This document shows positions 5,326 through 60,446 of a stretch of 64,000 nucleotides of DNA, piece by piece. The stretch is from a virus, in IMG/VR virus record IMGVR_UViG_3300012582_000005, positions 1-64,000 of that record; one strand, written 5' to 3'. The translations under genes and the position numbers were made by a program. The notes beneath the pieces were generated by a model, which was not told the DNA's origin, did no database searches, and was given only the letters and a program-made list of their open reading frames with translations. Positions within the stretch are counted from its first letter, which is position 1, and each line of letters opens with the position of its first letter.

Positions 5326-5562
5326 TTAACTTATATGATTATCTGGTATAGCAGTTTGTTTTAATCCTTTTCTTTTAGCTATATTTTCTTGATGTTTAGC
5401 TTCTATTTCAAGTTCTATGTCTAATTGTGATCCTTCATTTCCTAATGAAGTACCTTCTATGTCTATTAAGTTTTCAGTATCTACTTTGGGATTTTCTATT
5501 TCTGTTTCAGGAAGAACAGCTTCATTTTTCTTAAACTCGTTAAATTTCTTAATGTTTCTCAT
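5326..5562 (-). CDS. Hypothetical protein with CTS-like leader (MRNIKKFNEFKKNE|A)
   Basis: The internal ATG at 5562 abuts the upstream stop at 5564 and exposes the recurrent leader. Confidence 0.45.
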   Translation of the reverse strand: MRNIKKFNEFKKNEAVLPETEIENPKVDTENLIDIEGTSLGNEGSQLDIELEIEAKHQENIAKRKGLKQTAIPDNHIS

Positions 5563-5563
5563 A

Positions 5564-5890
5564 TTAAAAATAATCTTCAAATTTTACATCACCATTTTGA
5601 ACTACTATTTTTGAAATAGTTTCGCCCTCATATTTATCACCTTTTTTATATTTTTCTTTTAGTTTTTCTAATTCTTCTTTATTGTCCGCTTTAAAATGTT
5701 TTCCTATTTTATAAGTATTAGTCATTTTATTAGCTTTCATAGCTTTTTCCAAAGCTTCTTTTGTAATTATAGTTAATATATATCCATCACCTTCTTTTTT
5801 ATGTTTAGAATTTTCTTTTTCTCTATCTTCATCGGATAACTTCATAAGTTTCTTTTCTTGAAGAAATTCATTGAATTTTTTAATACTCAT
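5564..5890 (-). CDS. Hypothetical K/E-rich protein with CTS-like leader (MSIKKFNEFLQE|K)
   Basis: 108-aa ORF with the leader motif at its N-terminus. Confidence 0.5.
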   Translation of the reverse strand: MSIKKFNEFLQEKKLMKLSDEDREKENSKHKKEGDGYILTIITKEALEKAMKANKMTNTYKIGKHFKADNKEELEKLKEKYKKGDKYEGETISKIVVQNGDVKFEDYF

Positions 5891-5935
5891 TGATTTAGTT
5901 ATATTTTGATTATATATAAATATTCACTATGCTTA

Positions 5936-5951
5936 TTTTTAATATATAAAG
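5936..5951 (+). promoter_or_regulatory. Late-promoter-like T-run + ATATATA element
   Basis: TTTTTAATATATAAAG ends 2 nt before ATG 5953. It belongs to the recurrent motif family. Confidence 0.3.
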
Positions 5952-5952
5952 T

Positions 5953-6822
5953 ATGAAAAATATTAAATCATTTGAAGCTTTTGATAATGATATAGAGAAT
6001 AAAAGACTTTATTTAAATGTAGATAATGGAATTACTATTAAATCTGATGTGAATAAAACATCTAAACAAGGTTTTATTGAAAAAATGAAAGATAAATTTT
6101 ATAGTGTATCTAAAGTTAAAGAAATAGTATCTAAAGTTAAATGGGAAAATTTAATAGTTAAAGATGTGAATATGATATCTACAACAGATGGTGAAAATTC
6201 TATAATAAGAGTTTTTTTACCTGATGAAATTCAAAAACAAATTAGATTATCTAAAATAGATTTTGATTATGTTGAATTTAAAATTGATAATATAGGATTT
6301 GATAATAGAACACATACTATTGGTATAGATGATAAGTTAAAAGGTTTAGGATTAGGATATAAGTGTTATAAAGCTTTAGCGAAACATTTGGGATGGATAA
6401 CATCACATTCAAATGCTTCAAGTGATGCTAAAAATGTATGGTTAAAATTAATAAAAGATAAAGATTTTTACTCTATTTTATCTAAACTTTCTGTAATGAT
6501 TATTAATAAAAATTTATCTAAAGAAAATATTAGAACTGCTATTTTGAAATTTTTATCAATTAATTTTGTTAAAATTGAAGGTGAGTCTGATAAAGAAATA
6601 ATCAAAAAATTAGCAGGAAAGAAATTTCCTATTAAAATGGACGATGAATTAAAACAAATGTTCAAAGATGATGTTTTAATTAGAAGATTAGATATTGACT
6701 ATTTTGATAGAATAAGTAAATTTATAAAAGATGAGGATGCGGTAAATATAAAAGATGATGATATGCAAATTCATTATAGAAACAATACTAAAAGAGATAT
6801 GAATAAAAAAAGGGAGAATTAA
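5953..6822 (+). CDS. Hypothetical protein with CTS-like leader (MKNIKSFEAFDNDIE|N)
   Basis: 289-aa ORF. KLKGLGLGYKCYKAL weakly resembles GNAT motif A, but this is not enough for a call. Confidence 0.5.
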   Translation: MKNIKSFEAFDNDIENKRLYLNVDNGITIKSDVNKTSKQGFIEKMKDKFYSVSKVKEIVSKVKWENLIVKDVNMISTTDGENSIIRVFLPDEIQKQIRLSKIDFDYVEFKIDNIGFDNRTHTIGIDDKLKGLGLGYKCYKALAKHLGWITSHSNASSDAKNVWLKLIKDKDFYSILSKLSVMIINKNLSKENIRTAILKFLSINFVKIEGESDKEIIKKLAGKKFPIKMDDELKQMFKDDVLIRRLDIDYFDRISKFIKDEDAVNIKDDDMQIHYRNNTKRDMNKKREN

Positions 6823-6840
6823 TCTCCCTTTTTTCTTTTT
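6805..6840. terminator. Bidirectional intrinsic terminator
   Basis: A-run, GGGAGA (6812-6817), ATTAA loop, TCTCCC (6823-6828), then a T-run. It sits between convergent genes. Confidence 0.6.
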
Positions 6841-6977
6841 TTCTTACGAGTTTTAGTAGATATCATTTTATCAACAACTATCATGTTTAAAACTTGAAGT
6901 TGTTTCGTATAAAGTACTAGTTCAGATTTTAAATAATCTGATACTATTTCCTTGAATGTAACTATTTCTATTCCCAT
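6819..6977 (-). CDS. Possible 52-aa ORF downstream of clpP (MGIEIVTFKE...KKKRKKGD)
   Basis: Hand-translated ATG-to-TAA ORF below the ORF-track length cutoff. It has a basic tail and no other support. Confidence 0.25.
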   Translation of the reverse strand: MGIEIVTFKEIVSDYLKSELVLYTKQLQVLNMIVVDKMISTKTRKKKRKKGD

Positions 6978-6993
6978 AATATTATAATTTAGA

Positions 6994-7773
6994 TTATTTT
7001 CTTTTTTCCGCAGGTTTTTCTTCTTTAGTTATAACATTATCAATTAGTCCATAATCTTTTGCTTGTGGACTACGCATCCAGTAATCTCTTTCGCAATCTC
7101 TATAAACTTCTTCATAAGTTTTTCCTGAATGATTTGCAAGAATTTCATAAAGTTCTTTTTTAAGAATATCAATTTGTTGTGCAGTGATTTGAATATCAGT
7201 TGCTTGTCCTTGTGCGCCACCAAGAGGTTGATGAATCATAATTCTTGAATGTGGAAGAGCAAATCGTTTTCCTGCTGCACCACCCGCTAAGAGAACTGCA
7301 CCCATTGATGCTGCTAAACCTGTACAGATAGTAGATACGTCTGGTGAAATATAATTCATAGTATCATAAATACCCAAACCTGCATAAACTGAACCACCTG
7401 GACTATTTACATACATTTGTATATCTTTATCTGAATTTGCTGATTGTAAAAAGAGCATTTGTGCTACTAAAATGTTTGCTACGTGATCATCTACACCAGT
7501 ACCTAAAAAGATAATTCTATCAGCAATTAAACGAGAGAATACATCAATTTCTCTAAAATTAACATTACGTTCTTCTATAATTGAACGTGTCATATTACTA
7601 ATGTCGGGTACTATATGTCCGATATAAGGAACATTCATAGTAATATTTGGAATATTACTTAAACTTTGTATTGCGTTGGTTTTAATGTACTTATCAACGT
7701 GAATACCACCAATACCCATATGCTTTACGGCATAATTTCTAAAATCTTTTCCAATTTTTAAATGTTCTCTCAT
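6994..7773 (-). CDS. clpP: ATP-dependent Clp protease proteolytic subunit
   Basis: [22 protein letters not shown]...[18 protein letters not shown]...[11 protein letters not shown]...[18 protein letters not shown] is near-canonical ClpP with the Ser/His/Asp triad intact. Confidence 0.9.
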
Positions 7774-7812
7774 ATTCGTATTTGATAAGTGGTTAATTAT
7801 TTTGTATTATAT

Positions 7813-7843
7813 CAAATATAATTAAATTATTTATAATACCAAA
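7813..7843 (-). promoter_or_regulatory. Bacteroidota-type promoter for clpP
   Basis: The minus strand reads TTTG (7843-7840), N19, TATATTTG (7820-7813), about 40 nt upstream of the ATG. Confidence 0.45.
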
Positions 7844-7965
7844 ATATTTTAGAATTATTTTTTAAATAATTTTGTATAGTTTAAAAAAGTATGAGATTTT
7901 TATAAACTTTTAAGTATTTATTAGTAAAATAAATACAATTAATTAAAAAAATTAGATTTATATAA

Positions 7966-8202: not shown

Positions 8203-8206
8203 TAAT

Positions 8207-8222
8207 TTGTATTATTTGTATA
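8207..8222 (+). promoter_or_regulatory. Exact 16-mer TTGTATTATTTGTATA (copy 1)
   Basis: Identical 16-mer at 17284-17299. Both copies are intergenic and upstream of + strand genes. Confidence 0.3.
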
Positions 8223-8266
8223 TACTCCAAAGAAAAATAGCTTACTTATAGTAATTTAGTAAAATT

Positions 8267-8291
8267 AGCCCCTAAATAGGGGTTATTTTAT
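8267..8291 (+). terminator. Intrinsic terminator-like hairpin
   Basis: AGCCCCT, AAAT loop, AGGGGTT, followed by ATTTTAT. Confidence 0.5.
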
Positions 8292-8373: not shown

Positions 8374-11300
8374 TTGGCAGATTTTGATATTTACAGTAAG
8401 TTAAATCCTGGTATTTATATTTCTGAAAGGGATTTATCTGTATTTAATGTAACTCAATTTTATAATCAAATAACTCTTGTATTAGGATGTTCAAAAGAAG
8501 GTCCATTCAATGTTCCTATTATTAATATTAGTCCTGATAATTTTGAAAAGAAATTTGGAATGCAAGATTATGCATTAGAAAGAAAGGGATCATATTTTCA
8601 TAGAACTGTTAAGGCTTTATTACAAGAAGGACCTGTTCTTACTGTTAATCTTAGAACTACTGATAGAGAACTTGATAAATATAATTGGATAAATCTTTCT
8701 ACGAGTTCTGATAATTATAATTCGAACACTAGGACTAATCCAATAGAAGATTTTTATAATATAGCTGATGGGTTTTGGAGAAAAAATGTAGACCAATTAA
8801 TTGGACTTGCTGATGATAATATACCTGATTCAAATAAAAATCCATTTAATATAGTAAATCAAAGTGCTAAACCAGTTTCTATTTTAGCATTTAAATCAAA
8901 AATAAAAGGCTTTGATATTACAGTTGAAGATTGGTATAATTCAAAAACAATTCCTCAATATTTACACCCTAAAGATTTAATTTCTGATTATTTGATAGAT
9001 GTATATGCTATACAAGGTAGATGGAATAATTATGAAAAATTAGCTCTTGATATTAAATGGTCAAAGTATTTTAATAAAAACGGATTCAAAAGAGAAACTT
9101 TAGATGCTTTTATTGGAGAAGCAGAAGTAGTACTTGTTAATAAATGGACGGGTTCGGTATTACCATATTTCAAGGATAAGGCTGGTAGAGATATGTATAT
9201 TCAATCAATTATTAATAATGATGTTGATGAAACTGGTATATGGACTGCTTATAATTCTGATATTATAGAAACTGATTATAGAAATGGATTGGTTGATATA
9301 TTGGGTGATAATCTATCAGCAAATAAAAAGCCTAAAATAGATTTTCTTTCTTATAAGAAAAATCTTACAGATTTATATTTAGTAGAAGAAAAACTTCTTG
9401 ACCAACCAGGTAATTCATTTGGTAATCCAGAATTTGTATTAGGCGGAAGAGAGCAGTATAATTCAGAAGGATATGTATATGGATGTAAATTAAAGAATAT
9501 TATAGTTAATACAACAAATACATTGAAAGTAAAACCATTAGATTGTTTTTATGATGATGCTTATGGTATAATTAATGGTAAGAAAATAGAATTAAATAAT
9601 GATATTAACTATGATTTAGTATTACAAGAAATATTAACACCTGGTAATAAAATAATATTTGCTGTTATATTAACAGAAAATGGTATTAGTTTTAAAATAG
9701 GTAATATGATTCCAAATTCATATACATCTATTTTACCTTTGGTAGATTATCATACAGAAATTGTTCTTGGATATTATATTATATCACAGGATTTATTAGG
9801 TTATGAAACTGAAAATTATAATGTACAATTATTTGGTAATGTTATTGACGCTGTAGGATTTGTAAATCCATTTACTAAAAATTTAAATTCTAAAATAACT
9901 TTAAGAAATACTAATTATATTTGGCAACAAGAATTAGTATTCTATAATATTAATAATTATAGTTCACAAGATTATCAACAGTTGAGAATATACCACTTAT
10001 GGTATTGGTTAAGTAAAAATTTAAAAGAAAAAGAATCATTATATATTGATATTGATGGTAAAAAACAATTAGTTGAATTTGTTGAACAGTATAATGAATC
10101 AAACAATAAAGTAATTAAAATATCAATTCAAAATAAAGATTCTAATATAAGAGATACTGATGGAACTGCTGGTACATCAGGACTTCTTAGTATTTATATG
10201 GAAGATTTAGAATTCCTTTCTCAAAAAGAAATTGAATGGATTGAAAAAATTGAACCTTTTGTTGATGGTTCAAATGGTATTATAGGTGATGATTCATTCA
10301 TATATGATTCATTTGTTAAAGGAGAAATTAATAGTGGTGATCCTTTCTTTAAAAGTATTGGTGAAGAAGATAATGTAGTATTTTATACAGACTATATTAA
10401 TAATTATATCATGTTGAAAGATGGTCCAAATGCTAATTATGTTGGAAGTAAAGTAATTGTGTATGGTAGTACAAAAAATGATGGTATATTTACAATTTTA
10501 AATTCTACTTATATAGGTGGTGAATTCGTATTATACGTCAAAGAAGATATTACACCTGAAACTGTTGACAAACTTAGAATATATGATGCAGAGAATCCTA
10601 AAATAGTTAATTTATATTTTATTGGTGGTAAAATGAAAGCTAAAGTTGAGGATTATAATGGTGATTCAGAAGAATTGTATCGTAGAGTATTTGGTAAAAT
10701 TGATAGATCTCAATGGAAAAAAACTTTAGAAATTGAGCAAGTAATTGATTCAAATAGGATACTTGTGAGTGCTCAAACATATGGGAAATTACTTAATTAT
10801 AACTATTATTTACTTGCTAATAATAAATCGCTTACTGATGATACGAATGAAGTTAAAAGAAATTGGACTCGTATTGTTGATTTAGTTAGATGGGCTGATG
10901 ATGAATCTTTAATGCTTGTAGAAACGGATGCGCCTATAGCAATGAAAACTTTTGATGGTGATTTACAAACCGAATATCTAATACCAATTGATGAATGGGT
11001 TGATACATTAGATTTTAAAGTTCTTGAACCATTTATTGTAAGAGAAGAAAGTTTACCTAATGGGACAGAAGAAAGACAGAATCAAATTTTAAATCTTATT
11101 AGTAAAGATACTAAAATGGCTAAATCTTTATGTGTTGATAGAATGGAGTGGAGATATTTGGTAGATAGCTTTGGATTAGGATTAACAAGTAATTCTAAAT
11201 ATCAATTAGCAGAATTATGTTCTAATAAACAATTGGCGATGGGATTTTTGAATATGCCAAGTATTAAACAATTTAGAATGTCAGAAAAAACTTTATTTAC

Positions 11301-12012
11301 TAAAGATGGTTCATTCGATACTAAATTACTTTTAACTGGTGGTGATAGAAGAAATAGTGCAGGTGTAAGATATAGTTTAACCGAAGTAGGTAAATCATAT
11401 GTGATGTATATTACACCTTATGTTGTAGTATCAGAAAGAGGTAGAAAATTTGAAGTTCCACCATCTCCTTCTATAGCACAACTTTATATGAAAAAGCATA
11501 ATAATACCAAAGTATTCCAACCATGGACTATTATGGCAGGTGTACCAAATAGAATAACTCAGATAGCTGGATTAGAAGAACTATTCTCACCTGAACAATT
11601 ATCGGATTTACATAGATTGAGAGTTACTCCAATAACTAATTTTCAGAATATTATATTTTATCCTTTTGCTGAAAATACTTCTGAGATAATAAATTCATCT
11701 TTAGGATATGCTCATAATAGAGAAGCATTAATAGAGTTAGAAATAGTTTTAAAACAAGAATTGAATAATTTTCAATGGGATTTTTATACTAAAGAAAATG
11801 CTAAACGTATTGTTGATATAGCTAATAGTATATGTGGTAATTTTAAAATAGTAAATGCTATTGCTGAATATAGAAATTATTTTGATTTTGATCCAGAGCT
11901 TATAGATGCTCAAATAGCAGTTCTTAATACGTATATTGAACCTGTAGCTGGTATGGGTTCAATAGTTATTAGAATTAACATCCTTAAAACTAAAGGACTT
12001 GAAGGTATTTAA
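8374..12012 (+). CDS. Tail sheath protein (T4 gp18-like, enlarged to 1212 aa)
   Basis: The N-terminus LNPGIYISERDLS and the C-terminal YITPYVVV...VPPSPSIAQLYMK...RVTPITNF follow the sheath pattern. The start must be TTG, since the nearest in-frame upstream stop is at 8344 and no ATG exists before aa 62. Confidence 0.8.
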   Translation: MADFDIYSKLNPGIYISERDLSVFNVTQFYNQITLVLGCSKEGPFNVPIINISPDNFEKKFGMQDYALERKGSYFHRTVKALLQEGPVLTVNLRTTDRELDKYNWINLSTSSDNYNSNTRTNPIEDFYNIADGFWRKNVDQLIGLADDNIPDSNKNPFNIVNQSAKPVSILAFKSKIKGFDITVEDWYNSKTIPQYLHPKDLISDYLIDVYAIQGRWNNYEKLALDIKWSKYFNKNGFKRETLDAFIGEAEVVLVNKWTGSVLPYFKDKAGRDMYIQSIINNDVDETGIWTAYNSDIIETDYRNGLVDILGDNLSANKKPKIDFLSYKKNLTDLYLVEEKLLDQPGNSFGNPEFVLGGREQYNSEGYVYGCKLKNIIVNTTNTLKVKPLDCFYDDAYGIINGKKIELNNDINYDLVLQEILTPGNKIIFAVILTENGISFKIGNMIPNSYTSILPLVDYHTEIVLGYYIISQDLLGYETENYNVQLFGNVIDAVGFVNPFTKNLNSKITLRNTNYIWQQELVFYNINNYSSQDYQQLRIYHLWYWLSKNLKEKESLYIDIDGKKQLVEFVEQYNESNNKVIKISIQNKDSNIRDTDGTAGTSGLLSIYMEDLEFLSQKEIEWIEKIEPFVDGSNGIIGDDSFIYDSFVKGEINSGDPFFKSIGEEDNVVFYTDYINNYIMLKDGPNANYVGSKVIVYGSTKNDGIFTILNSTYIGGEFVLYVKEDITPETVDKLRIYDAENPKIVNLYFIGGKMKAKVEDYNGDSEELYRRVFGKIDRSQWKKTLEIEQVIDSNRILVSAQTYGKLLNYNYYLLANNKSLTDDTNEVKRNWTRIVDLVRWADDESLMLVETDAPIAMKTFDGDLQTEYLIPIDEWVDTLDFKVLEPFIVREESLPNGTEERQNQILNLISKDTKMAKSLCVDRMEWRYLVDSFGLGLTSNSKYQLAELCSNKQLAMGFLNMPSIKQFRMSEKTLFTKDGSFDTKLLLTGGDRRNSAGVRYSLTEVGKSYVMYITPYVVVSERGRKFEVPPSPSIAQLYMKKHNNTKVFQPWTIMAGVPNRITQIAGLEELFSPEQLSDLHRLRVTPITNFQNIIFYPFAENTSEIINSSLGYAHNREALIELEIVLKQELNNFQWDFYTKENAKRIVDIANSICGNFKIVNAIAEYRNYFDFDPELIDAQIAVLNTYIEPVAGMGSIVIRINILKTKGLEGI

Positions 12013-40944: not shown

Positions 40945-41589
40945 ATGTCTATTAAATCATTCGAATTATTCCAAGAGAAATATAATGCTACGGGTGCTAA
41001 ACTTGATTATTATTATATTTTAGATGATTTGTCTACTACTAGATTAAGAGATATTTATAAAGTTGTTAAATTAAACAATTTTAGAGCAATTGCTACATTT
41101 TCTGAAAATATAGAGCATTTTGAAGAAATACCATGTAAGAAAATAGCATTAGTAAATTATCCTAAATTATTCTCGTCATCAAGAGTTTTTAGAGAAATTG
41201 AAAGTGTTAAAGCTGATGAAATTGAATTTCCGTGGGATAAGAAATATATTTTAGAAAAAGAACAGTGGAGAAGCGTGGTACTTAAAGCCTTATCACAAGG
41301 TAAAATAATTAGACCAATGTTAGAATTTGGTATAGATTCAGCAGATTATATTAAAGATACAATAGAATTTTTTAAAGAAGTTGGAATTAAAGATGTAGTA
41401 ACTTCTTCTGGATTAATAGATAAAACTACCACATTGGAAAAATTCACCGAATTTAAAATGTTAATTCCTAATATTTTTAAAGTTAAAGTTATAGCCGAAA
41501 TTAAAGATATAGATAAAGCAAAAATATTTTTTAAAGAGGGTGCTAATTTAGCAGGAACTACATTCACAAAACTTAATATTTCTTTGTAA
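40945..41589 (+). CDS. DeoC/aldolase-like TIM-barrel protein (degenerate) with CTS-like leader
   Basis: A hand alignment to E. coli DeoC gives KKIALVNYP~IRIATVTNFP, KADEIEFPW~GADEVDVVFP, GIKDVVTSSG~GADFIKTSTG and ANLAGTT~RFGAS. The Schiff-base Lys position is Val. Confidence 0.35.
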   Translation: MSIKSFELFQEKYNATGAKLDYYYILDDLSTTRLRDIYKVVKLNNFRAIATFSENIEHFEEIPCKKIALVNYPKLFSSSRVFREIESVKADEIEFPWDKKYILEKEQWRSVVLKALSQGKIIRPMLEFGIDSADYIKDTIEFFKEVGIKDVVTSSGLIDKTTTLEKFTEFKMLIPNIFKVKVIAEIKDIDKAKIFFKEGANLAGTTFTKLNISL

Positions 41590-43965: not shown

Positions 43966-44352
43966 ATGAAACATATAAAATCGTTTAACCAATATACTAT
44001 CAATGAATCTACTGAAGGATTTGGTGATGTATTAAAATTAATCAATAATATCGATTTGTTAAAGAAGATATTTGAATTTGCTAATGAAATTGATATTGAC
44101 AAATTGATTAAAAAATTTGGCACTATGGATGAAATGATACAAGTATTTAAAGATGCTAACGAAAGTGTTGATAGTATGAAACGTGTAATATTAGCATTAT
44201 TTTCTAAAAATCCCAAACCAATTTATAAAGATAAATTAGATATTATGTGTAATTATCTTAAAGTTAAGTATAAAGCAACAGAGGATAATATAAAATTCCT
44301 AAAACAAGCTATAATTGATTTTGCTAAAAATTTTAATGTTCCTGTAAAATAG
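43966..44352 (+). CDS. Hypothetical protein with CTS-like leader (MKHIKSFNQYTINE|S)
   Basis: ATG 43966 is preferred over TTG 43927. Confidence 0.45.
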   Translation: MKHIKSFNQYTINESTEGFGDVLKLINNIDLLKKIFEFANEIDIDKLIKKFGTMDEMIQVFKDANESVDSMKRVILALFSKNPKPIYKDKLDIMCNYLKVKYKATEDNIKFLKQAIIDFAKNFNVPVK

Positions 44353-47902: not shown

Positions 47903-48313
47903 ATGAAGTACTTAAAATTATACGAAAATTTCTCAGAAGAATGGGATGATGAAGATGAAGAGGAGGAAGATGATACGCTCGATTCAGTATTTGAAATTAT
48001 TAATGGGTATGGTGGTTATGATACATATATTAAAGTAAACTATAATGAATTAAGAAGATATTTTGAAGTTAACGGTATATTAATTGAAGGTATAATGGTT
48101 GAAAATAATAAAGATTGGGGTGATGAACAATTTAGTGAATATGAATTATATTCTCATATTTATCCCCGATATGATAAAGTTGATGAAGAAGTAATTTTAA
48201 AAATAGATAATGATTTTAAGAGTTTATCTTTTATAGAAACTATTGTAAACAATATAAAATACAATACATTTATTTTAAATTTTAAACGTGGAATTGGTGT
48301 AGAATTATGTTAA
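47903..48313 (+). CDS. Acidic hypothetical protein with CTS-like leader (MKYLKLYENFSEE)
   Basis: The run EEWDDEDEEEEDDTLD follows the leader. Confidence 0.45.
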   Translation: MKYLKLYENFSEEWDDEDEEEEDDTLDSVFEIINGYGGYDTYIKVNYNELRRYFEVNGILIEGIMVENNKDWGDEQFSEYELYSHIYPRYDKVDEEVILKIDNDFKSLSFIETIVNNIKYNTFILNFKRGIGVELC

Positions 48314-48329: not shown

Positions 48330-48740
48330 ATGAAATCATTTAAAAAGTTTGTTGCTGATGCAAGTAGAAGAAAAGAGAAAGAGGTAGAAAAGCCTTTCGA
48401 AATGCCAAAAAAAGGAAATACTTTGGAACCTCTTACTAATGATTTAGAGCCCATTCAAGATGAAATTGAAAAACAACAAAAACCTATCAAGTTAAAAGAT
48501 AATGATTGGGAAATTGTGAGCATAATTGATTTTACAAAAGAAGAGCCGCAAATAAAAGAAGCTGTTATTGTTAATGCTGATTTGGGAAATACAGAAGTTT
48601 CGCGCGGTGATATTATATACATAACAGCAATGCTTAGAAAAAAGGATGCTAAATATTATTCACAAAATGTTATTGGTGTTCTAAAGACTAGAGTAGTGGA
48701 CATATATAATTCGTTATCAATATTGAACAATCTAAAATAA
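48330..48740 (+). CDS. Hypothetical protein (weak leader MKSFKKFVAD)
   Basis: 136-aa ORF. Confidence 0.45.
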   Translation: MKSFKKFVADASRRKEKEVEKPFEMPKKGNTLEPLTNDLEPIQDEIEKQQKPIKLKDNDWEIVSIIDFTKEEPQIKEAVIVNADLGNTEVSRGDIIYITAMLRKKDAKYYSQNVIGVLKTRVVDIYNSLSILNNLK

Positions 48741-49673: not shown

Positions 49674-51401
49674 TCAGCCATCGTCTTCATTACCGTCTTC
49701 GTCATCATAATCATAGTCATATTCATCACCAGGTAATTGCCTATCTTGTATTCTATATGCGAATAAATTATCTGTTAAAGGTATTTGAATATCGTCAACA
49801 GCAAGTTTATTACGTTTATTTGCAATTTGTTCAGGTGTAGTTCTTTCAGCAAAGAATATAGGATCAATAAATGGTTTCATTGCACGATAGAGATTGTGTT
49901 TAGTAATTCTATTTTTCTTATCAGGTACAGGAACTCTTTCCACAGTACCATCTTTCTTCTTAACTTTTTTGAATGGCTGTTCATCTGCCCATTTAGCAAT
50001 TTCATCAAAATTAACAGACCCGTTATACCATTTCAAAAGTTTTTCTGTAGACTTTCTATTTCTTGTTTTTGTGTCAGGTTTTAATTCTGATGTTTCTATA
50101 TTAGCATCATAAAATGCTTGAACATTTACATAATTTTTATAAATATCTTGTCTATAAACCATTTCATCGGTTAAATAACTATAAGTAGCTTTGTTAGCTT
50201 CTTCCTCAGTCATTACTTTGAATGTTCCTTTATCAGTGACATATATGTTTTTTTCAATTTCGAAAATATCTTCTGGTGTATGGTTTAGATAAGTAGCGAG
50301 TGCCATTAATCTACTATCTTTAGTAGCATTTGGATTAGTTTTAATACTTCTCGCAGCTAAAGTATCCATATACGGTGCGCCCAAACCAATATTAGTAAAG
50401 AAATAATTTCCACCTTTATATTCATTCTTCATTCCCGTATATTTCGTAACAATTTTATGGAAGAATTGTTTTAAAACACCAGGATATACCATATCAAAGA
50501 ATATTTGACCTTTAACATTTCTAATTAAACATCTTGAAAATATAGTAAAAGGTACAATGTTTTTCTTTTTATCTGTGAACGGTGTATTGAATTTTAGATA
50601 AGCAATTTTAACGTTTGAATCAAATAAATTTGCTGGTAAATGCTTATTATGTGATCCACTATAAAGATTTTGACACGAATCATAAAATTTTGATATGGAC
50701 ATATTTAACATATCTTCTGACTTAGAAGATATGTAAAGCTGTAAGTCGTATTTAGAAAATAAATCAATGTCAAAATTTCTATCAACAGCCATTGAAAGAA
50801 TATTAGTAAAGGCTGGATTAATAAATGGGTTTTTCATATCATTCTCTCCAGGGAAAGCTAACATATAACTTTCATAAAAACCATTGAAGTTGGATATGTT
50901 ATTTGATAGAATAATTTCACCAGGTTCTTTATTTCTATATGTTGGTAGATTGTCTTCACCTAATAATGGTTTTCCATTATCTCCTTTTATCATTATTCTA
51001 TTACCTCTTGTTTCTCCAATGCTAATTAATTTATAAATATTAGAAGTCATTAATTTTAAATCAAGCAAAGATGGTTTTTCGATATCAATAACACCATCTA
51101 TGGTTTTAGCTTCTTTTATAGTGTTGATAAATTTAGTTGATGGTTTCCATCCTTCGAGAAGCAATTCAATTTTTTTAACGTTCACCATAAACATCGATTG
51201 TATTGCTTCATCTTTCTCTTCTTTGGTCAATATCCATTCACCCTCGGTTAAGTTTTCGGCTTTATCAGGAACTTCCATATCAAGATATTTTTTACCAATC
51301 CTCTTGGTTAAAATCTTTTTATGGTGATCAGGAATTTGATCTTTTAGTGCTTCTTTTACTTGAAATTCTTCAAGAGATTTAATATTTTTACTATTCTTCA
51401 T
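49674..51401 (-). CDS. Paralogue family member 1 (575 aa), with CTS-like leader
   Basis: It shares the core DLQLYISSKSEDMLNMSISKFYDSCQNLYSG...FSRCLIRNVKG with the next two genes. The C-terminus is acidic. Confidence 0.7.
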   Translation of the reverse strand: MKNSKNIKSLEEFQVKEALKDQIPDHHKKILTKRIGKKYLDMEVPDKAENLTEGEWILTKEEKDEAIQSMFMVNVKKIELLLEGWKPSTKFINTIKEAKTIDGVIDIEKPSLLDLKLMTSNIYKLISIGETRGNRIMIKGDNGKPLLGEDNLPTYRNKEPGEIILSNNISNFNGFYESYMLAFPGENDMKNPFINPAFTNILSMAVDRNFDIDLFSKYDLQLYISSKSEDMLNMSISKFYDSCQNLYSGSHNKHLPANLFDSNVKIAYLKFNTPFTDKKKNIVPFTIFSRCLIRNVKGQIFFDMVYPGVLKQFFHKIVTKYTGMKNEYKGGNYFFTNIGLGAPYMDTLAARSIKTNPNATKDSRLMALATYLNHTPEDIFEIEKNIYVTDKGTFKVMTEEEANKATYSYLTDEMVYRQDIYKNYVNVQAFYDANIETSELKPDTKTRNRKSTEKLLKWYNGSVNFDEIAKWADEQPFKKVKKKDGTVERVPVPDKKNRITKHNLYRAMKPFIDPIFFAERTTPEQIANKRNKLAVDDIQIPLTDNLFAYRIQDRQLPGDEYDYDYDDEDGNEDDG

Positions 51402-51450: not shown

Positions 51451-53085
51451 TTAATTTCTCTTCTTTATTTCTTGTTTGTATGCGAAATAGTCACCCATGT
51501 TAATTTCATTTTCATCAACTGAAAGTTTATTTCTTTTACTTGAAATACTTTCATCGGTTAATCTTTCTTCCCAGAATTTTGAATCCAAATACGGTTTCAT
51601 AAAACGATAAAGATTGTGTTTGGTGATATTATGTTTATTATTTCCACCAAATTTTTTAGGATCAAATCCTAAATCTGAACCACGCCTTTCATCATCATCT
51701 TCATTTAAATCTCTTTTTTTCTTTTTTTCTTTTTTAGGTGTTGGTGGTTCTTCTGCCCATTTAGTAATTTCATCAAAGTCACATGATCCACTATAGTTAA
51801 CCAAACATTTACTTTTATTTTCTTCGAAGAATTTTTCGATATCAACATATTTTTTGTAAATATCTTGCTTATAAATCATTTCTTCTGTAATATAATGTTT
51901 AGTTGCATTTAAAGCTTCTTCGATAGATAACACAAGAAAGTCTCCTTGGTCAGTTCCATAAACATTCTTATCAGCTTCGAGTATATAATCAGCTTCAGTT
52001 TTTAAGAATTTAGCTAATGCTTGAAGTTTTATGTCTTTGTAAGCATCAGGATTGAATTTAATAGGAACACCGATTACACTATCAAAATAAGGACGACCTA
52101 ATCCAACTTCGGTATAATAATAAGTCTTTGATTCTTTATCAGCAAAAGAATTCTTCATTCCTGTATATTTTTCAATGATTGAGTGTACAAATAATCTCAA
52201 ATCATTTGAAAATTTAGGGTATACCATATCAAAATAAATTCTACCTTTAATGTTTCTAACTATGCATCTTGTAAAAGATGTAAAGGGCATAACATTTCCA
52301 TTTCTATCGGTATATGGTGTATTAAATTTTAAATAAGCAATTTTACAGTTCTTATCGAACAAATTTGGCGCAAGACAATTATTTTGAGCACCACTATAAA
52401 GATTTTGACATGAATCATAAAATTTGGAAATTGACATATTCAACATATCTTCTGGCTTAGATGATATGTAAAGCTGTAAGTCGAATTTGGTAAATAGCTC
52501 AAAGTCGAAATTACCCTGTTTTACATAAGAAAGAACTTCTGTAAACTCTCTACTCATGAAAGGATTTTCTATTTTAGCGTCACATGCAGAATTATAAGAC
52601 TCTAAGAAAGCATTGAAGTTAGATTTATTGTTTGAAAATACAATTTCACCTTTCTTTTTATCTACTTTTTTAGGCATTTTCAATAATCCTTCCGTAATAG
52701 GATGACCGTTATCATTTCTAAGAATCATTTTATCACCTTTTGTTTCACCAACATTAATAAGCTTAAAACTGTTAGAATTAAGCATTTTAATATCAATAAT
52801 TGATGGTTTTAAAAGATTAATTGCGTCTTTAGTAGTTCTTGAAAGCTCAAAAATTTCTAAAAAATGCTCAGTTGGTTTAAATTTAGCCAATACTTTATCA
52901 ATACCCTTAACGTCAACACCAAAAAGAAGTTGGATAACACCATCCTTTTCCTCTTTAGTTAATGTCCATTCACCCTCAATAATGTTTTCAGCCTTTGTGG
53001 GTAATTCAAGATTTAGGTATTTTTTACCTATTTTTTTATCCATCAATTCTAATTGATGTTTTGGTAAGAGGTCTTTTAACGACAT
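51451..53085 (-). CDS. Paralogue family member 2 (544 aa), no leader
   Basis: It has the same conserved core. Its N-terminus MSLKDLLPKHQ aligns with the post-leader ALKDQIPDHH of member 1. Confidence 0.7.
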   Translation of the reverse strand: MSLKDLLPKHQLELMDKKIGKKYLNLELPTKAENIIEGEWTLTKEEKDGVIQLLFGVDVKGIDKVLAKFKPTEHFLEIFELSRTTKDAINLLKPSIIDIKMLNSNSFKLINVGETKGDKMILRNDNGHPITEGLLKMPKKVDKKKGEIVFSNNKSNFNAFLESYNSACDAKIENPFMSREFTEVLSYVKQGNFDFELFTKFDLQLYISSKPEDMLNMSISKFYDSCQNLYSGAQNNCLAPNLFDKNCKIAYLKFNTPYTDRNGNVMPFTSFTRCIVRNIKGRIYFDMVYPKFSNDLRLFVHSIIEKYTGMKNSFADKESKTYYYTEVGLGRPYFDSVIGVPIKFNPDAYKDIKLQALAKFLKTEADYILEADKNVYGTDQGDFLVLSIEEALNATKHYITEEMIYKQDIYKKYVDIEKFFEENKSKCLVNYSGSCDFDEITKWAEEPPTPKKEKKKKRDLNEDDDERRGSDLGFDPKKFGGNNKHNITKHNLYRFMKPYLDSKFWEERLTDESISSKRNKLSVDENEINMGDYFAYKQEIKKRN

Positions 53086-53162: not shown

Positions 53163-54776
53163 TTAAGATTTCTGAATAATTAAGTAATCACCTACTCGAA
53201 TTTCTTTGTTTTTCCCACCCAAAACCCTGACTATTTGATTTTTCCAATCTAAAAGTATTTTATCATAAAATTTTCTATCAATAAAATCATAAAAATAACC
53301 TATAAGATTACTTCTACCCAATATTGACCTGAGATATTTATAAACGTCTTCTGCTTCAACATCTTTTCTATCCATATTATACTTTTTAGCTGTTTCATTA
53401 ACAGTTGTAGAAAATTCACCTCTAAATCTATCCATATCAATATAATGTGCCCAATCATCTACAGGATAAATTTCAGTGAAATTATTCTTCAACGAAGAAA
53501 ACATTTTATCAATAATTACAGTTTCATCTTTTGTAATATCAAAAATATAGAATGTTTTAGACTCTTCATCAACATAGGTATATTCACATGACTTATCTTT
53601 AACAATATATTCTATATCTAAATTAAGCTCTTTTGATAATAAAATTGCTTTAGTATCATTGAATGCTGATTTTATTTCTTCTATACCTAATGTGTCCATA
53701 TAAGGTGTAGCTAATCCTTTTGTATTTTTGTAAAAATATCTATCACCTTTATAAGTATTTTTCATAGAAGTATATTTTTCTATCATTCCATGATGAAACT
53801 CATTCATATCATACATTTTAGGATAAGCTGATTCAAAATATAATTTTCCTTTAATATTTCTTATAAGACATCTTGAAAATGGTGTGAATGGTATTATATT
53901 ATTCCCTATATCTATAAATGGTGTATTAAATCTTAAAAAACAAATTTTACAATTTTTATCAAACACATTTGAAGGTAATTGATGTCTATATCCACCATTA
54001 TACATATTTTGACAAGAATCGTAAAATGCTGATAAAGACATATTTAACATATCTTCTGCTTTTGATGAAATGTATAATTCTAAATCAAATTTACCTAAAA
54101 TATCAATATCGAAATTATTTCTAGTAATATCATTAATCCTTGAATAGATATTTTTGAAAGCTTCTAAAATATATGGATTTGAAATATCACCACCATAACA
54201 ATTGTGATAACCCATAAATAAGCTATTAATGTTAGATTTATTATCTGTAAATACTGGTTCACCTGGTAATTTATCTTCATATGATAACTCACCATCTTTT
54301 CTTAGAGGTATACCACTTTTATCACGTATTACTTTTCTATCACCTTTGGTTTCACTTATACTCAGCATCCTAAAATTATTACCATATAACATTTTTATAT
54401 CTTTAATGGTAGGTTTAATTATATTAATTTCATTATCGTGTATATAGGATTGCTTAACTATATCTAAAAATCTTTCAGATGGTTTAAATTCTTTTAAAGA
54501 GTTTTCTACAGATGATATGTTTATGTTAAACATTAGTTGAATTGCCTTATCTTTATCTTCCTCTGAAAGTTTCCATAAGCCATCGGTGATATTATCTGTT
54601 TTCTTTGGAACATCAGTATCTAATATATCATATGCATCTATATTATAAACTGAATAGTCATCATCGTCTGGATCATACTGTAAAATGTTATTCTTTAATA
54701 TGTCTTGTTGATGTTTTGGAATCTCATCCTTTAATGCTTCCTTTATAAATTGTGTGAAATTGAATATACGTTTCAT
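53163..54776 (-). CDS. Paralogue family member 3 (537 aa), with CTS-like leader
   Basis: The leader is MKRIFNFTQFIKE|ALKDEIP. The core reads DLELYISSKAEDMLNMSLSAFYDSCQNMYNG...FSRCLIRNIKG. Confidence 0.7.
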   Translation of the reverse strand: MKRIFNFTQFIKEALKDEIPKHQQDILKNNILQYDPDDDDYSVYNIDAYDILDTDVPKKTDNITDGLWKLSEEDKDKAIQLMFNINISSVENSLKEFKPSERFLDIVKQSYIHDNEINIIKPTIKDIKMLYGNNFRMLSISETKGDRKVIRDKSGIPLRKDGELSYEDKLPGEPVFTDNKSNINSLFMGYHNCYGGDISNPYILEAFKNIYSRINDITRNNFDIDILGKFDLELYISSKAEDMLNMSLSAFYDSCQNMYNGGYRHQLPSNVFDKNCKICFLRFNTPFIDIGNNIIPFTPFSRCLIRNIKGKLYFESAYPKMYDMNEFHHGMIEKYTSMKNTYKGDRYFYKNTKGLATPYMDTLGIEEIKSAFNDTKAILLSKELNLDIEYIVKDKSCEYTYVDEESKTFYIFDITKDETVIIDKMFSSLKNNFTEIYPVDDWAHYIDMDRFRGEFSTTVNETAKKYNMDRKDVEAEDVYKYLRSILGRSNLIGYFYDFIDRKFYDKILLDWKNQIVRVLGGKNKEIRVGDYLIIQKS

Positions 54777-56250: not shown

Positions 56251-56514
56251 ATGAAAAAAGAGATTCTATTAAAATTTCAAAAAATTATATTAGGAGTAAT
56301 AATATTGGTTATAGTATTAATATTGTCAATATTTGCTATACCAATATTATATCTGTCTAAAAAATTTAAAAAATGTCAATACTGTAAAAAGAGAGGTAAA
56401 ATATCATACGAAGAGAAATATTATAATACTTTTATACCTGTTTGTCAAAATTGCTTAAATTTTAAAAATAAAAATGTTAGAAGGAAAGTTATTATAGATG
56501 ATATTGTTAACTAG
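56251..56514 (+). CDS. Small membrane protein with a CxxC...CxxC ribbon
   Basis: The TM segment is IILGVIILVIVLILSIFAIPILYL, followed by CQYC...CQNC. Confidence 0.4.
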   Translation: MKKEILLKFQKIILGVIILVIVLILSIFAIPILYLSKKFKKCQYCKKRGKISYEEKYYNTFIPVCQNCLNFKNKNVRRKVIIDDIVN

Positions 56515-56756
56515 TCTAATTCCTCATTTGAATCTAATCTTTTAAAGCCTATACCATTACACTCTGAACAACCATTTCCACCACAAGTACAAATTTCACC
56601 TTTTTTAAAAATTTCTTCATCTTCTTCTATTACACCATTCATAAAACAATCTTGGTCATTATCAAAATATGATATTCCCATCGGTGGATAATTTGGAAAA
56701 GAAGGCTTCAAGAATTGATTGAATGACTTCAAGTGTTTTCTTTTTTTATTTTTCAT
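56511..56756 (-). CDS. Small protein with DnaJ-type CxxCxGxG zinc motif and a leader-like N-terminus
   Basis: ATG 56756 is preferred because GTTTAATATATACAAC lies directly upstream. The motifs are HLKSFNQFLK and CTCGGNGCSECNGIG. Confidence 0.4.
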   Translation of the reverse strand: MKNKKRKHLKSFNQFLKPSFPNYPPMGISYFDNDQDCFMNGVIEEDEEIFKKGEICTCGGNGCSECNGIGFKRLDSNEELD

Positions 56757-56772
56757 GTTGTATATATTAAAC
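56757..56772 (-). promoter_or_regulatory. Late-promoter-like element
   Basis: The minus strand reads GTTTAATATATACAAC and abuts ATG 56756. Confidence 0.3.
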
Positions 56773-56858
56773 ATATTCTCAATATATTTTATCGACACTT
56801 AAATTTTTTTCTCATTATTTATATAACATTTATATTAAAAAAAACGTTATTATGAGCA

Positions 56859-58316: not shown

Positions 58317-58328
58317 ATTTCTCAAAAT

Positions 58329-58371
58329 AAGTTATAAAATATTTGTATTAGTCTACAATATTTTATAACTT
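58329..58371. repeat. Perfect 15-bp AT-rich inverted repeat with a 13-nt spacer
   Basis: AAGTTATAAAATATT, TGTATTAGTCTAC, AATATTTTATAACTT. No T-run follows. The spacer region contains TTGTATTA. Confidence 0.5.
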
Positions 58372-58391
58372 TGTTCTCTAATTATAGAAAT

Positions 58392-59573
58392 ATGAAGAGA
58401 TTGTTTATATTGTTAATTCTATTTTCAATATCCATTACAGGTTTTTCAAAAACTTTAAATTTGGATACCTATCTAAAAACTTATTACGATAACGCCGAAT
58501 ATAAAAAGTGTTATGATTTAACACGTGTGATAGCTAAAGGTAGCTATAGTGGGTATAGTTTAACACCATTTGGTATAAAATTTAATGATAATATTACTTA
58601 TATTTCATCTGAAATGAAGTATTATGAGCTTCATAGTTTATATAATATAAATTCTGATGCTTTCTATTATAATTATATCGTACAAAATGATGCCATATTA
58701 AAATATTTTTCCAAAGAAGATGTGTATCCTAAGTTTTTAAATTGGATAGATAGTCTATATAACACTCCCATTATTGATGAGTTTAAAATACTTGTTGATA
58801 ATGCATTATCAAGTCATCCTATAGAAATTGATGATATTAAAGAAATAAAAAGTGATATTCGACAAACACTTAAACTCAGTGAATTGTATAATTTCCTTTC
58901 GAAAAAGGATACTATAGCAAGAGATAAAATATTTAAAGTTAATAATTCGAATTTAGTAAAATTCATGAGTAAATATAAGAATGTAGATTTATTAAATTTA
59001 TATTCCGAAGATTTTGATTTAATGAACTCTACTAAATCTCCTTCTGGTAAAGTAATGTCAATTCAAAATGATGCATATGTTTTCTTTAAAAATGTAATTA
59101 GAACTAAACGGTTTATAAACGAAAAACAAATATGTGATTATTTATACACAAATACGAATTTTAGTGATAGTGAAAAGATATTCGTAACATATTATTTCTT
59201 TAGAGCATTTTTATCATACGCACAAAAAAATACTACTACATATACAAATTACACTAATATAGAAAAAATAATTCTATATCGAACTACTATATGTAATGGG
59301 TATGCTATCATTTTAAAGCATTTTCTAAATAAAAATAATATAGAGTGTTATCATATAACGTTGAGTACTAATAATGGGCTACACGCTAATAATATTTTGG
59401 TATTTAAAAATAAAGTATATTATGTAGACTTGACATGGGATATTTATTTTAAAAATATTAATACATTTTCTAATAGTAAAATAAAGTCGTTGGGTTATAT
59501 AATAATGATTGATGAATCTACTGATTGTAATCGAATTAATTATTTAAAAAATGTAATAAAAAAAGGGAGTTAA
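58392..59573 (+). CDS. Secreted transglutaminase-like (Cys-His-Asp) superfamily protein
   Basis: The signal peptide is MKRLFILLILFSISITGFS. The triad is in TICNGYAIILKHFL...GLHANNILV...YYVDLTWD. ATG 58392 is preferred over TTG 58371. Confidence 0.6.
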   Translation: MKRLFILLILFSISITGFSKTLNLDTYLKTYYDNAEYKKCYDLTRVIAKGSYSGYSLTPFGIKFNDNITYISSEMKYYELHSLYNINSDAFYYNYIVQNDAILKYFSKEDVYPKFLNWIDSLYNTPIIDEFKILVDNALSSHPIEIDDIKEIKSDIRQTLKLSELYNFLSKKDTIARDKIFKVNNSNLVKFMSKYKNVDLLNLYSEDFDLMNSTKSPSGKVMSIQNDAYVFFKNVIRTKRFINEKQICDYLYTNTNFSDSEKIFVTYYFFRAFLSYAQKNTTTYTNYTNIEKIILYRTTICNGYAIILKHFLNKNNIECYHITLSTNNGLHANNILVFKNKVYYVDLTWDIYFKNINTFSNSKIKSLGYIIMIDESTDCNRINYLKNVIKKGS

Positions 59574-59587
59574 AAACTCCCTTTTTT
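59565..59587. terminator. Bidirectional intrinsic terminator
   Basis: A-run, GGGAGT, TAAAA loop, ACTCCC, then TTTTTT, between convergent genes. Confidence 0.7.
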
Positions 59588-60446
59588 ATTTAACTTTTAA
59601 GCTAAGTTTAACAAATTGTTCAGCTAAGAATTTAGGATCTTGTGGATTGTCTGTACCTTTCACGTATGGTGTTTTCCCCATTACTGTAGTTACTGTCGCA
59701 ACTTGTGATATAAATCTCGATAAATCTGGATTGGATGTTTTATATAAAGTAATGACATAATTTTTCAAATTGTTAGCTCTTGCTTGTGCTAAAGCTTGGT
59801 TTCCACCTTGATATGTAGTGGCAACTTGTGATGCACCACCAACAAAAGTAAATGTATACTTATCGGTAGCACCTGGCGCTCTTAAAGCACCTTTATTTTC
59901 AGTAAAATATGTTTCAAATGGTTTTAACATATCATTTAATTCAGTCTTCTTAGTTTCGTCTATAACATCAACATTGGGTGCAAAGAAATTTCCTAAATCT
60001 AATTCAATTGGTTTTATTGTTACTGGATTAGCACCACCTGGTACTATAATACCCTGAGCCATCCAAGCAGTACCATTTTTATTAAGATTTAAAACCCATG
60101 TGTTTTGTTCTGTACCATAATTTCCAATTACAGCTTTACCATCAGCACCGATATTCTTTTTTAAGATACCCATTTTAAATGGTCCATGAATAGAAGAACC
60201 TGTTGCAATATTAAAAGACTCATTAGTAGAGTAAATGAATCTATCTTCGCTATCAAGGAAAGTAAAATTCATTGGGGCTGTGTTTAAAGGCTTTCCATCA
60301 TAGAGGAATGTGCATGCACCTGTAATACCTTTTTTGTATTTTTCACCAACAGCATACCCAATAAGTTGAATTGATATTTGTAATTTAGCTGCATCAACCG
60401 CTTCATTTATTTTACCATAATCTTGATACTTCTTTAAATACTTCAT
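59586..60446 (-). CDS. Hypothetical protein with CTS-like leader; C-terminus weakly OmpA/MotB-like
   Basis: The leader is MKYLKKYQDYGKINE|A. FVGGASQVATTYQGGNQALAQARANNLKNYVI resembles GhtD..G....N..LS..RA..V..yl. Confidence 0.4.
   Translation of the reverse strand: MKYLKKYQDYGKINEAVDAAKLQISIQLIGYAVGEKYKKGITGACTFLYDGKPLNTAPMNFTFLDSEDRFIYSTNESFNIATGSSIHGPFKMGILKKNIGADGKAVIGNYGTEQNTWVLNLNKNGTAWMAQGIIVPGGANPVTIKPIELDLGNFFAPNVDVIDETKKTELNDMLKPFETYFTENKGALRAPGATDKYTFTFVGGASQVATTYQGGNQALAQARANNLKNYVITLYKTSNPDLSRFISQVATVTTVMGKTPYVKGTDNPQDPKFLAEQFVKLSLKVK

Follow-up and report, generated by a model that had tools for sequence, protein, structure and literature searches.

A recurrent N-terminal leader on unrelated ORFan proteins of a Mahaphage-clade megaphage: a probable prohead-targeting propeptide resembling the T4 capsid targeting sequence

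The 64,000-nucleotide stretch of viral DNA analysed here (positions 1 to 64,000 of the IMG/VR record IMGVR_UViG_3300012582_000005, hereafter the window) has a G+C content of 26% and carries 10-11 open reading frames (ORFs) whose otherwise unrelated products begin with the same short peptide. This leader is 10-17 residues long and has the consensus M-[KR]-x-[IL]-K-x-[FY]-x-[EQN]-[FY]-(1-4 residues)-E. Its resemblance to the capsid targeting sequence (CTS) of the internal proteins of phage T4, first pointed out in a first-pass annotation, and its probable role in protein packaging are considered below. The leader genes and one leaderless paralogue are listed with their N-termini as translated and with the codons of the leader. 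A slash marks the boundary at which cleavage is predicted, ranks refer to the leave-one-out scoring described after the list, and promoter-like boxes have the form [AT]ATATATA.

5326..5562 (-): 78-aa ORFan, N-terminus MRNIKKFNEFKKNEA, leader MRNIKKFNEFKKNE/A, codons 5562-5521; rank 0/66,768; directly downstream of the 5890 gene and without a promoter box; Pfam and PHROG blank
5564..5890 (-): 108-aa ORFan, N-terminus MSIKKFNEFLQEK, leader MSIKKFNEFLQE/K, 5890-5855; promoter-like box 5918-5911
5953..6822 (+): 289-aa ORFan, N-terminus MKNIKSFEAFDNDIEN, leader MKNIKSFEAFDNDIE/N, 5953-5997; promoter-like box 5941-5948, 5 nt 5' of the ATG; no match in Pfam, PHROG or PDB
40945..41589 (+): 214-aa ORFan, N-terminus MSIKSFELFQEK, leader MSIKSFELFQE/K, 40945-40977; promoter-like box 40933-40940
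43966..44352 (+): 128-aa ORFan, N-terminus MKHIKSFNQYTINES, leader MKHIKSFNQYTINE/S, 43966-44007; promoter-like boxes 43942-43960
47903..48313 (+): 136-aa very acidic ORFan, N-terminus and divergent leader MKYLKLYENFSEE, 47903-47941; rank 7/66,768; promoter-like box 47891-47898
48330..48740 (+): 136-aa protein, N-terminus MKSFKKFVAD; without a promoter box of its own
49674..51401 (-): 575-aa paralogue, N-terminus MKNSKNIKSLEEFQVKEA, leader MKNSKNIKSLEEFQVKE/ALKDQIP, 51401-51351; rank 0
51451..53085 (-): 544-aa leaderless paralogue, starting MSLKDLLPKHQ
53163..54776 (-): 537-aa paralogue, N-terminus MKRIFNFTQFIKEA, leader MKRIFNFTQFIKE/ALKDEIP, 54776-54738; promoter-like box 54803-54796
56511..56774 (-): 81- or 87-aa protein, likely start 56756, MKNKKRKHLKSFNQFLKPSFPNYP; leader without Glu
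59586..60446 (-): 286-aa ORFan, N-terminus MKYLKKYQDYGKINEA, leader MKYLKKYQDYGKINE/A, 60446-60402; rank 53/66,768; promoter-like box 60475-60468

All nine main ORF starts and N-terminal peptides named in the first-pass annotation were recovered from the translated window, and its two weaker cases, 56756(-) with MKNKKRKHLKSFNQFLKP and 48330(+), are also real. The pattern [IL]K[KSLN][FYL][NEQ].[FY], which was derived from the leader cases themselves, has 14 six-frame matches in the window, nine of them at residues 3-8 of real ORFs (binomial P ~7e-17). When each leader was scored with a matrix built without it, seven of the ten outscored all other 66,768 stop-free six-frame 9-mers, and the remaining three (47903, 54776 and 60446) were in the top 0.01-0.1%. 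As had been noticed before, the underlying DNA differs between the copies: synonymous codons (ATT/ATA/TTA/TTG, AAA/AAG, TTT/TTC/TAT/TAC) are used, and the upstream DNA is unrelated except for the short 8-nt box. Since the codons vary synonymously among the copies, selection acts on the peptide.

The same variation ruled out a DNA repeat or a mobile cassette, and compositional chance was ruled out by the leave-one-out ranks together with the position test of the pattern. A signal peptide was rejected as well because the leader has no hydrophobic core. One could still argue that the similarity arises from an AT-rich genome and codon selection at translation starts, or that it is the relic of a cassette consisting of a promoter and the first codons, and that the peptide has no function. 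The low G+C content, the AT-rich codons of the leader residues K, N, I, F, Y and E and the promoter-like box directly upstream of most copies would agree with this. We consider it extremely improbable. The leaders are defined by fixed positions and not by composition alone (rank 0/66,768 for seven of them), third codon positions are free to vary and the upstream DNA differs beyond the box. Moreover, the leader is present on just ~5-15% of the genes, is missing from the capsid, sheath and portal genes, and is retained across genomes with ~30% protein identity.

These genomes belong to a group of very large phages. Complete Mahaphage-clade genomes of 634, 636, 642 and 735 kb have been described, with predicted Bacteroidetes hosts (PMC7162821; Al-Shayeb et al. 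2020). We infer that the window derives from the ~636-kb Mahaphage-clade megaphage or from a near-identical genome, and that its host is probably a member of the Bacteroidetes. The phage had been described as otherwise T4-like, which holds only for a remote morphogenetic and replication core, the genome as a whole being apparently that of this megaphage. A megablast search with 22 kb of the window found no match among GenBank phages, and a scan of IMG/VR with the 537-aa protein (53163-54776(-)) found no relatives. The tblastn ranking of the nearest database phages placed the 634.8-kb LR745206.1 first and LR756501/LR756500 next; Flavobacterium phage MaF61, Lak phages and Tenacibaculum jumbo phages were further relatives, and the 642-kb LR756502.1 was picked up via the 537-aa family. 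LR745206.1, the 634-kb relative used throughout, is a complete genome with ~889 crude genes; the proteins that it has in common with the window are ~30% identical, and gene order is not conserved. A closer comparison was provided by L001, a 21.6-kb piece of a 115-kb contig with proteins ~52-79% identical to those of the window.

The leader was found outside the window too. An independent test was made by applying the window-trained matrix to L001, where the best eight six-frame matches were all ORF N-termini (8/8). At a matrix score of at least 12, the leader was assigned to 43 of the ~889 crude genes of the 634-kb genome, and at a score of at least 10 to ~65. It is also present in the 642-kb genome and, weakly, in the 735-kb genome. 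The enrichment at ORF N-termini, which the first-pass annotation had recommended checking, is strong in the window, in L001 and in the 634-kb genome. Its statement that the leader ORFs share nothing else was likewise borne out: after removal of the first 22 residues, 48 of 52 leader proteins of the window and the 634-kb relative were BLASTP singletons. The leader is thus a real element which is specific to N-termini, portable between unrelated proteins and conserved.

The relatives also bear on the individual members. The MKYLK.[FY] form of the divergent 47903(+) leader is frequent in the 634-kb genome, the 5953..6822(+) protein has a partial relative in the 735-kb genome, and the orthologue of 51401(-), P0007, carries MEQEKKNMDSLEEFLMKEE/ALK. 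For the 56511..56774(-) gene, start 56756 is favoured over 56774 because a promoter-like box (56768-56761) lies 5 nt upstream of it; this N-terminus reached the best matrix score despite its omission from training, has an orthologue in L001 and resembles the N-terminus MKHLKKFNEE/LVPRFPSY of a 634-kb protein. The N-terminus of 48330(+) has the form of the T4 tag (MKTYQEFIAE), except that Asp takes the place of the Glu at which the T4 tag is cleaved. Its orthologue in L001 is 79% identical and starts MKSFKKFVSD, and a relative was also found in the 634-kb genome.

The resemblance to the T4 CTS proved to be real, T4 IPII and IPIII both starting MKTYQEFIAE/A as read from NC_000866. A link between the T4 peptide and the megaphage leader was provided by the head scaffold. 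The C-terminal part of a protease-scaffold protein of the 634-kb genome consists of ~10-14 tandem 12-residue units NIxYSEY[LI]AENLDK, which are kept in the 642-kb and 735-kb genomes and in metagenomic relatives. The pattern [FY].[EQ][FY][LIV].E, drawn from this scaffold repeat and not from the leaders, exactly matches the T4 CTS (MKT-YQEFIAE/A). Of its 28 matches in the 634-kb proteome, 10 belong to the scaffold, 13 have their first residue at positions 4-9 of other proteins, and the remaining five lie elsewhere. Outside the scaffold, the pattern is therefore strongly biased to N-termini (13/18, P = 2.8e-13); examples are MIKKYLQFIKE/A, MKLKKYKQFIKE/S, MISKYNQFINE/E and MKKFTEYIKE/S. Since 11 of the 13 N-terminal matches had been missed by the matrix, the tagged set of this genome comprises at least 54 proteins (43 + 11). 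Within 36 kb of T4 the pattern occurs in IPII and IPIII only, and samples of PTm1, MaF61 and Lak phages gave zero matches. Its only matches in the window are the leaders of 5890 (FNEFLQE) and 54776 (FTQFIKE); the leaders outside the pattern keep the two aromatic residues and the Glu, but the spacing of the Glu varies or the preceding residue is non-aliphatic.

According to a review of T4 head assembly (PMC9026906), residues 4 and 7 of the IPIII CTS govern targeting, whereas residues 8 and 10 govern processing. In the full-length leader, conservation appears to fall on the matching positions (aromatic, aromatic, aliphatic, Glu). The review also states that an Asp in place of residue 10 leaves the targeting of the T4 tag intact but prevents its processing; 48330 has this Asp variant. 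Two of the five matches that LR745206.1 has outside scaffold and N-termini deserve mention. The product of 604746(-) has an internal match at residue 474 of 491, 17 residues from its C-terminus (…AYTEYLAE/LSRIR), which could be a candidate C-terminal propeptide by analogy with the one reported for T4 Alt. The other is in the 83-aa ORF 460686(-), which resembles an isolated copy of the scaffold repeat (NISYSEYISEN).

The end of the leader behaves as a module boundary. Three paralogues stand in tandem at 49674-54776; the leaders of the outer two end in QVKE/ALKD and FIKE/ALKD, and the middle one starts with MSLKD. The leaderless paralogue 51451..53085(-) thus begins one residue past the predicted E/A cut of both its neighbours, and the arrangement is kept in L001 (MPLKDHLPKHQ). 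Relatives of the 537-aa family retain F-[ILV]-x-E/A down to 30% identity. Similarly, the 130-aa gene immediately 3' of the capsid gene keeps E/[SG]KKDKFP constant, with leaders that vary in length (10, 11 and 13 residues). The AlphaFold2 model of the 537-aa family has a pLDDT of 86.8, with residues 1-11 below 50 and outside the fold. The leader is disordered in this model, and the leaderless paralogue marks it as a separable module; together these are an indirect hint that it may be sufficient for packaging. A parallel for paralogues with and without a tag, by way of analogy only, is found in T4, where Alt is packaged and ModA and ModB are not.

The same properties could be read differently, the leader being a short amphipathic interaction helix which is not removed by proteolysis and which directs the protein to the tail, baseplate, membrane or replication compartment or serves oligomerisation. 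Hydrophobic residues do recur every three positions (4, 7 and 10), the leaders of 56756 and 48330 have no usable Glu and the cleavage is a prediction only. What the pattern matches is, however, specifically the repeat of a head scaffold together with a peptide proven to target the capsid, and the hydrophobicity of the leader is too low for a signal peptide or a membrane anchor. A cut site also explains better than the end of a helix why, in orthologue families, a Glu followed by a small residue is conserved at the leader end while the leader length varies. We therefore regard the helix as unlikely.

The box [AT]ATATATA, often preceded by a run of T, occurs 38 times in the window and 407 times in the 634-kb genome and stands 5-25 nt before the ATG in most window cases. 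This short distance suggests that the mRNAs are leaderless or nearly so. In the 634-kb genome the box stands ahead of the genes for capsid, portal, protease, sheath and a gp15-like protein, and in the window ahead of two virion genes:

8374..12012 (+): tail sheath, PHROG tail sheath 2e-52, 30.5% identical to the LR745206.1 sheath over the full length; box 8345-8352
63350..64000 (+): gp13-like neck protein, cut by the window end; L001 orthologue with PF26809 (Phage_T4_gp13); box 63323-63330

The gp13-like fragment has no Pfam match of its own. By its context, the box of the sheath gene marks this element as 'late'. Matrix-defined leader genes are preceded by the box in seven of nine cases in the window vs 9 of 49 other genes (P = 0.001), and in 24 of 43 cases in the 634-kb genome vs 195 of 846 others (P = 1e-5). 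With the two weaker cases included, eight of 11 window leader genes have it. The distribution of the box suggests a late promoter from which leader genes would be expressed together with the head genes. The leaderless paralogue has TAtaTTTG (TAnnTTTG) upstream instead of the ATATATA box, both in the window and in L001. TAnnTTTG is the Bacteroidetes -7 promoter consensus. Early-type genes of the window (ligase and the leaderless paralogue) show this motif. The window also encodes an ECF-like sigma factor at 38118-38711(+) (Sigma70_r2 1e-15, Sigma70_r4_2 1e-13) with 45% identity to a copy in the 634-kb genome; it may read one class of phage promoters, perhaps the one with the [AT]ATATATA box.

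A prohead-targeting propeptide of the T4 type would need a T4-type head and a prohead protease. T4 proteins located the terminase, sheath, portal and capsid protein of the 634-kb genome within one 35-kb region, and Pfam identified the head genes (Portal_T4 2.7e-57, Gp23 1.8e-26). The protease-scaffold mentioned above is a 707-aa protein encoded between the portal and capsid genes, as in the T4 order. Its first ~200 residues match Peptidase_S77 weakly when taken alone (E 0.005). Relatives 52-84% identical to it carry PF03420, and a nine-sequence protease profile aligned with T4 gp21 by hhalign with a probability of 98.9% (E 2e-17) across the motifs GE(L/F)xHP and VSSR(A/G)xG. The order portal, protease-scaffold, capsid was also found in the 642-kb and 735-kb genomes by ORF listing and capsid similarity, the 642-kb capsid protein being 76% identical to the 634-kb one. 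A profile search with the protease alignment returned 6,428 S77 relatives, and S77 proteins also occur in 525-557-kb contigs. Hydrophobic-x-Glu sites number 6-8 per 100 residues in the 642-kb and 735-kb scaffolds vs 2.5 genome-wide in the 634-kb genome; such a density would be expected of a scaffold that is chopped by a Glu-specific protease. Leader ORFs occur within these head modules. In the 642-kb genome two of them immediately precede the portal gene; others lie downstream of the capsid gene.

The first-pass annotation had suggested a search for a gp21-like protease elsewhere in the genome. An S77 protease-scaffold, a T4-type portal and Gp23 are present in the relatives examined, so that a T4-type protease is not lacking there, but the window does not reach its own head module and includes only the sheath and the gp13-like gene as T4-type virion genes. 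The fusion itself is a separate observation: the protease is followed by a scaffold-like region of 10-14 repeats and then by a very acidic tail in LR745206.1 at 198546-200669 (L009/L010), in L023 at 6821-8920 and in L024 at 6487-8910. We know of no such architecture, a protease fused to a tandem-repeat scaffold, in T4-like phages.

The leader proteins themselves resemble the fast-evolving cargo of T4 in having few recognizable domains. Only one of 48 matched Pfam (a NUDIX domain) vs ~11 of 43 length-matched untagged genes, among which the Pfam-positive ones included DNA polymerase B, a 5'-3' exonuclease, a poly(A) polymerase and ribosomal protein S21. The leader was not found on replication or metabolic enzymes of this kind, where its common occurrence would have spoken against a packaging signal. 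The leader proteins of the window were blank in Pfam and PHROG scans. Two functional labels given earlier found no confirmation. The 'OmpA-like' assignment of 59586..60446(-) was unconfirmed, since the only Pfam match is below threshold (E 0.0038, 18 bits, cut-off 27.2); no PDB sequence match was found and the single-sequence model was unusable (pLDDT 33). A 'degenerate aldolase-fold protein' received no support in Pfam, PHROG or PDB sequence searches. The AlphaFold2 model of the 537-aa family had no structural relative in the PDB (best E 0.014, TM ~0.1), and without a structural neighbour for this family no cargo function can be named.

Considering all these results, we estimate a probability of about 0.65 that the leader is a prohead-targeting propeptide of the T4 CTS type which serves both targeting and processing, and which probably represents a new, much enlarged variant. 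Leader genes would be transcribed together with virion genes from the late-type box [AT]ATATATA. The leader resembles one unit of the scaffold repeat, and the tagged protein would probably co-assemble with the scaffolding core in the growing prohead. The gp21-type serine protease (Peptidase S77) would then cut after the Glu which ends the leader, as is predicted for the scaffold and for the N-terminal segment of the capsid protein. The mature cargo would remain in the head with the DNA and, by analogy with the T4 internal proteins, might enter the host at infection. That the packaged proteins are injected or have effector (anti-restriction) roles is suggested by this analogy and is less secure than targeting and processing. 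A broader proposal is that the largest known phages direct cargo into the head by means of a peptide which copies their own scaffold repeat, that at least ~50 ORFans (~6% of the genes) are so addressed and that one enzyme-sized family exists in packaged and unpackaged versions. We would give this proposal slightly less than even odds.

Several points weigh against a propeptide of the T4 type. The tagging of ~6% of all genes implies a very large cargo list. No proteomic data on this uncultivated phage were found in the literature, so that packaging and cleavage are predictions. The evidence for the protease comes from relatives which are ~30% identical and share no gene order with the window. 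No leader was seen in 40-kb samples of Lak (Lak-B2), PTm1 and MaF61, phages with a protease of the same type. The first-pass annotation had stated that the leaders mostly end in [ILVF]-x-E; several, however, end in KNE, DIE or FQE without an aliphatic residue at Glu-minus-3, 56756 has neither Glu nor another acidic residue, and 48330 has Asp in place of the Glu. The matrix contains F-N-E, which makes the enrichment of hydrophobic-x-E in the matrix-defined leaders circular in part, and this enrichment was not used as independent evidence. The T4 CTS scores -7.5 on the narrow window matrix. As this matrix fails to recognise the T4 CTS, the likeness is one of pattern, and no homology is claimed.

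A further point is the presence of a full-length ClpP gene (PF00574, 9.8e-78) at 6994-7773(-), which adjoins the three leader genes at 5326-6822. This neighbourhood keeps alive a reading in which the leader is an N-terminal tag for a reader other than the capsid, either a phage Clp system timing degradation or a chaperone. Short N-terminal ClpX signals of the Met-basic-hydrophobic type are known, and the position of the leader outside the folded domain in the AlphaFold2 model would suit such a tag. ClpX N-motif 2 consists of Met-basic followed by three consecutive hydrophobic residues. The leader does not have this form, its hydrophobic residues standing singly at 4, 7 and 10 with polar or basic residues between them. 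The ClpP relative in the 634-kb genome (~123.6-124.2 kb, 46% identical) is not flanked by leader genes. Moreover, a Clp tag leaves unexplained the match of the leader with both the scaffold repeat and the T4 CTS, the association with the promoter box, the leader ORFs of the head modules and the conserved E/A boundary. We consider this reading very unlikely and retain the prohead-targeting propeptide.

The nearest known system is that of T4, whose CTS is carried by IPI, IPII, IPIII and the Alt propeptide and removed by gp21. Both are short N-terminal peptides on unrelated, fast-evolving small proteins encoded by genes scattered across variable regions. Both begin with M-K and have an aromatic or hydrophobic residue every three positions, then, in part of the megaphage leaders, aliphatic-x-Glu and a small residue (T4 MKTYQEFIAE/A, window MKRIFNFTQFIKE/A and MSIKKFNEFLQE/K, 634-kb MIKKYLQFIKE/A). 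Relatives within the megaphage clade, like T4, have the T4-type portal, the Gp23 capsid protein and the S77 protease. In contrast to T4, the megaphage leader is usually at least three residues longer, with an extra [IL]-K-x turn and a variable spacing of the Glu. It occurs on 10-11 proteins per 64-kb window and on at least 54 in the 634-kb relative, whereas T4 has a handful, and in the megaphage relatives one polypeptide combines the protease with a scaffold that repeats the motif in tandem. The leader is known from sequence alone, and homology is not establishable for so short a motif. Encapsulin cargo-loading peptides are also short terminal tags on unrelated cargo of an HK97-fold shell, and the cargo can be predicted from the tag. 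Unlike the leader, encapsulin tags are usually C-terminal, bind the shell, remain uncleaved, act without scaffold or protease and do not belong to phage virions.

The phiKZ-like giant phages (phiKZ, 201phi2-1, SPN3US) are large-genome myoviruses with many head-internal proteins that have N-terminal propeptides; a T4-related prohead protease removes these after Glu, and they are believed to guide the proteins into the head (PMC5694885). The cut motif in these phages is A/S/G-x-E, and most propeptides have ~80-130 residues and are protein-specific (PMC5694885). A propeptide of this type was rejected for the window, where the residue at Glu-minus-3 is I, L, V, F, Y or K and leaders of 10-17 residues are common to unrelated proteins. 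The phiKZ-like phages also form a clade separate from the Mahaphages with their Bacteroidetes hosts. No paper describing such a leader in megaphages was found.

The other genes recognized in the window include the following:

12134-13072: gp32-like ssDNA-binding protein
17345-18418: S1-domain protein
18487-19725: AAA ATPase
19866-34460 (+): 4,864-aa ORF; no Pfam match, weak local match to the 634-kb genome, strong positive GC skew
36733-37872 (-): primase
44379-45749: DNA ligase

Three recognizable genes are clustered among the leader genes, encoding a histone-deacetylase-family protein at 56859-57806(+) (6.4e-17), an M15 D-Ala-D-Ala peptidase at 57816-58316(+) (7.3e-19) that is probably a cell-wall hydrolase, and, with a weak match, a C92 amidase-like protein at 55613-56230(+). 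A 597-aa HNH/homing-endonuclease gene at 61470-63263(-) (PHROG 3339, 2.4e-124) lies just upstream of the gp13-like gene and is probably a mobile insertion, since it is absent at the corresponding site of L001. The 496-aa protein 38879-40369(+) has an N-terminal signal-peptide-like segment and a weak C-terminal sorting domain of type IX secretion (PF18962, E 9.5e-5, below the cut-off), which would fit a phage-encoded secreted protein and a Bacteroidetes host. At least 291 metagenome stretches encode capsid proteins with 64-79% identity to the ones of the 634-kb and 642-kb genomes, and 80 of these stretches were taken as loci L025-L104. The contigs reach 492 kb (freshwater), and their names suggest marine, activated-sludge and other samples. 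As related capsid proteins occur in so many stretches of several sample types, this megaphage group appears to be widespread.

To our knowledge, megaphages of 540-735 kb come from metagenomes only, a function has been assigned to almost none of their hundreds of genes, and there is no analysis of their virions. If the leader is a prohead-targeting propeptide, the packaged and probably injected protein arsenal of a megaphage could be read straight from its genome sequence, and a sequence rule would sort dozens of ORFans per genome into a particle-carried set. These ORFans would be the likeliest effectors of host takeover or anti-defence in the first minute of infection (compare T4 IPI), and paralogues with and without the tag would serve as natural controls. 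As a tag, the leader would be a candidate for bringing foreign proteins into very large capsids. It would also suggest that targeting peptides arise as single copies of a scaffold repeat.

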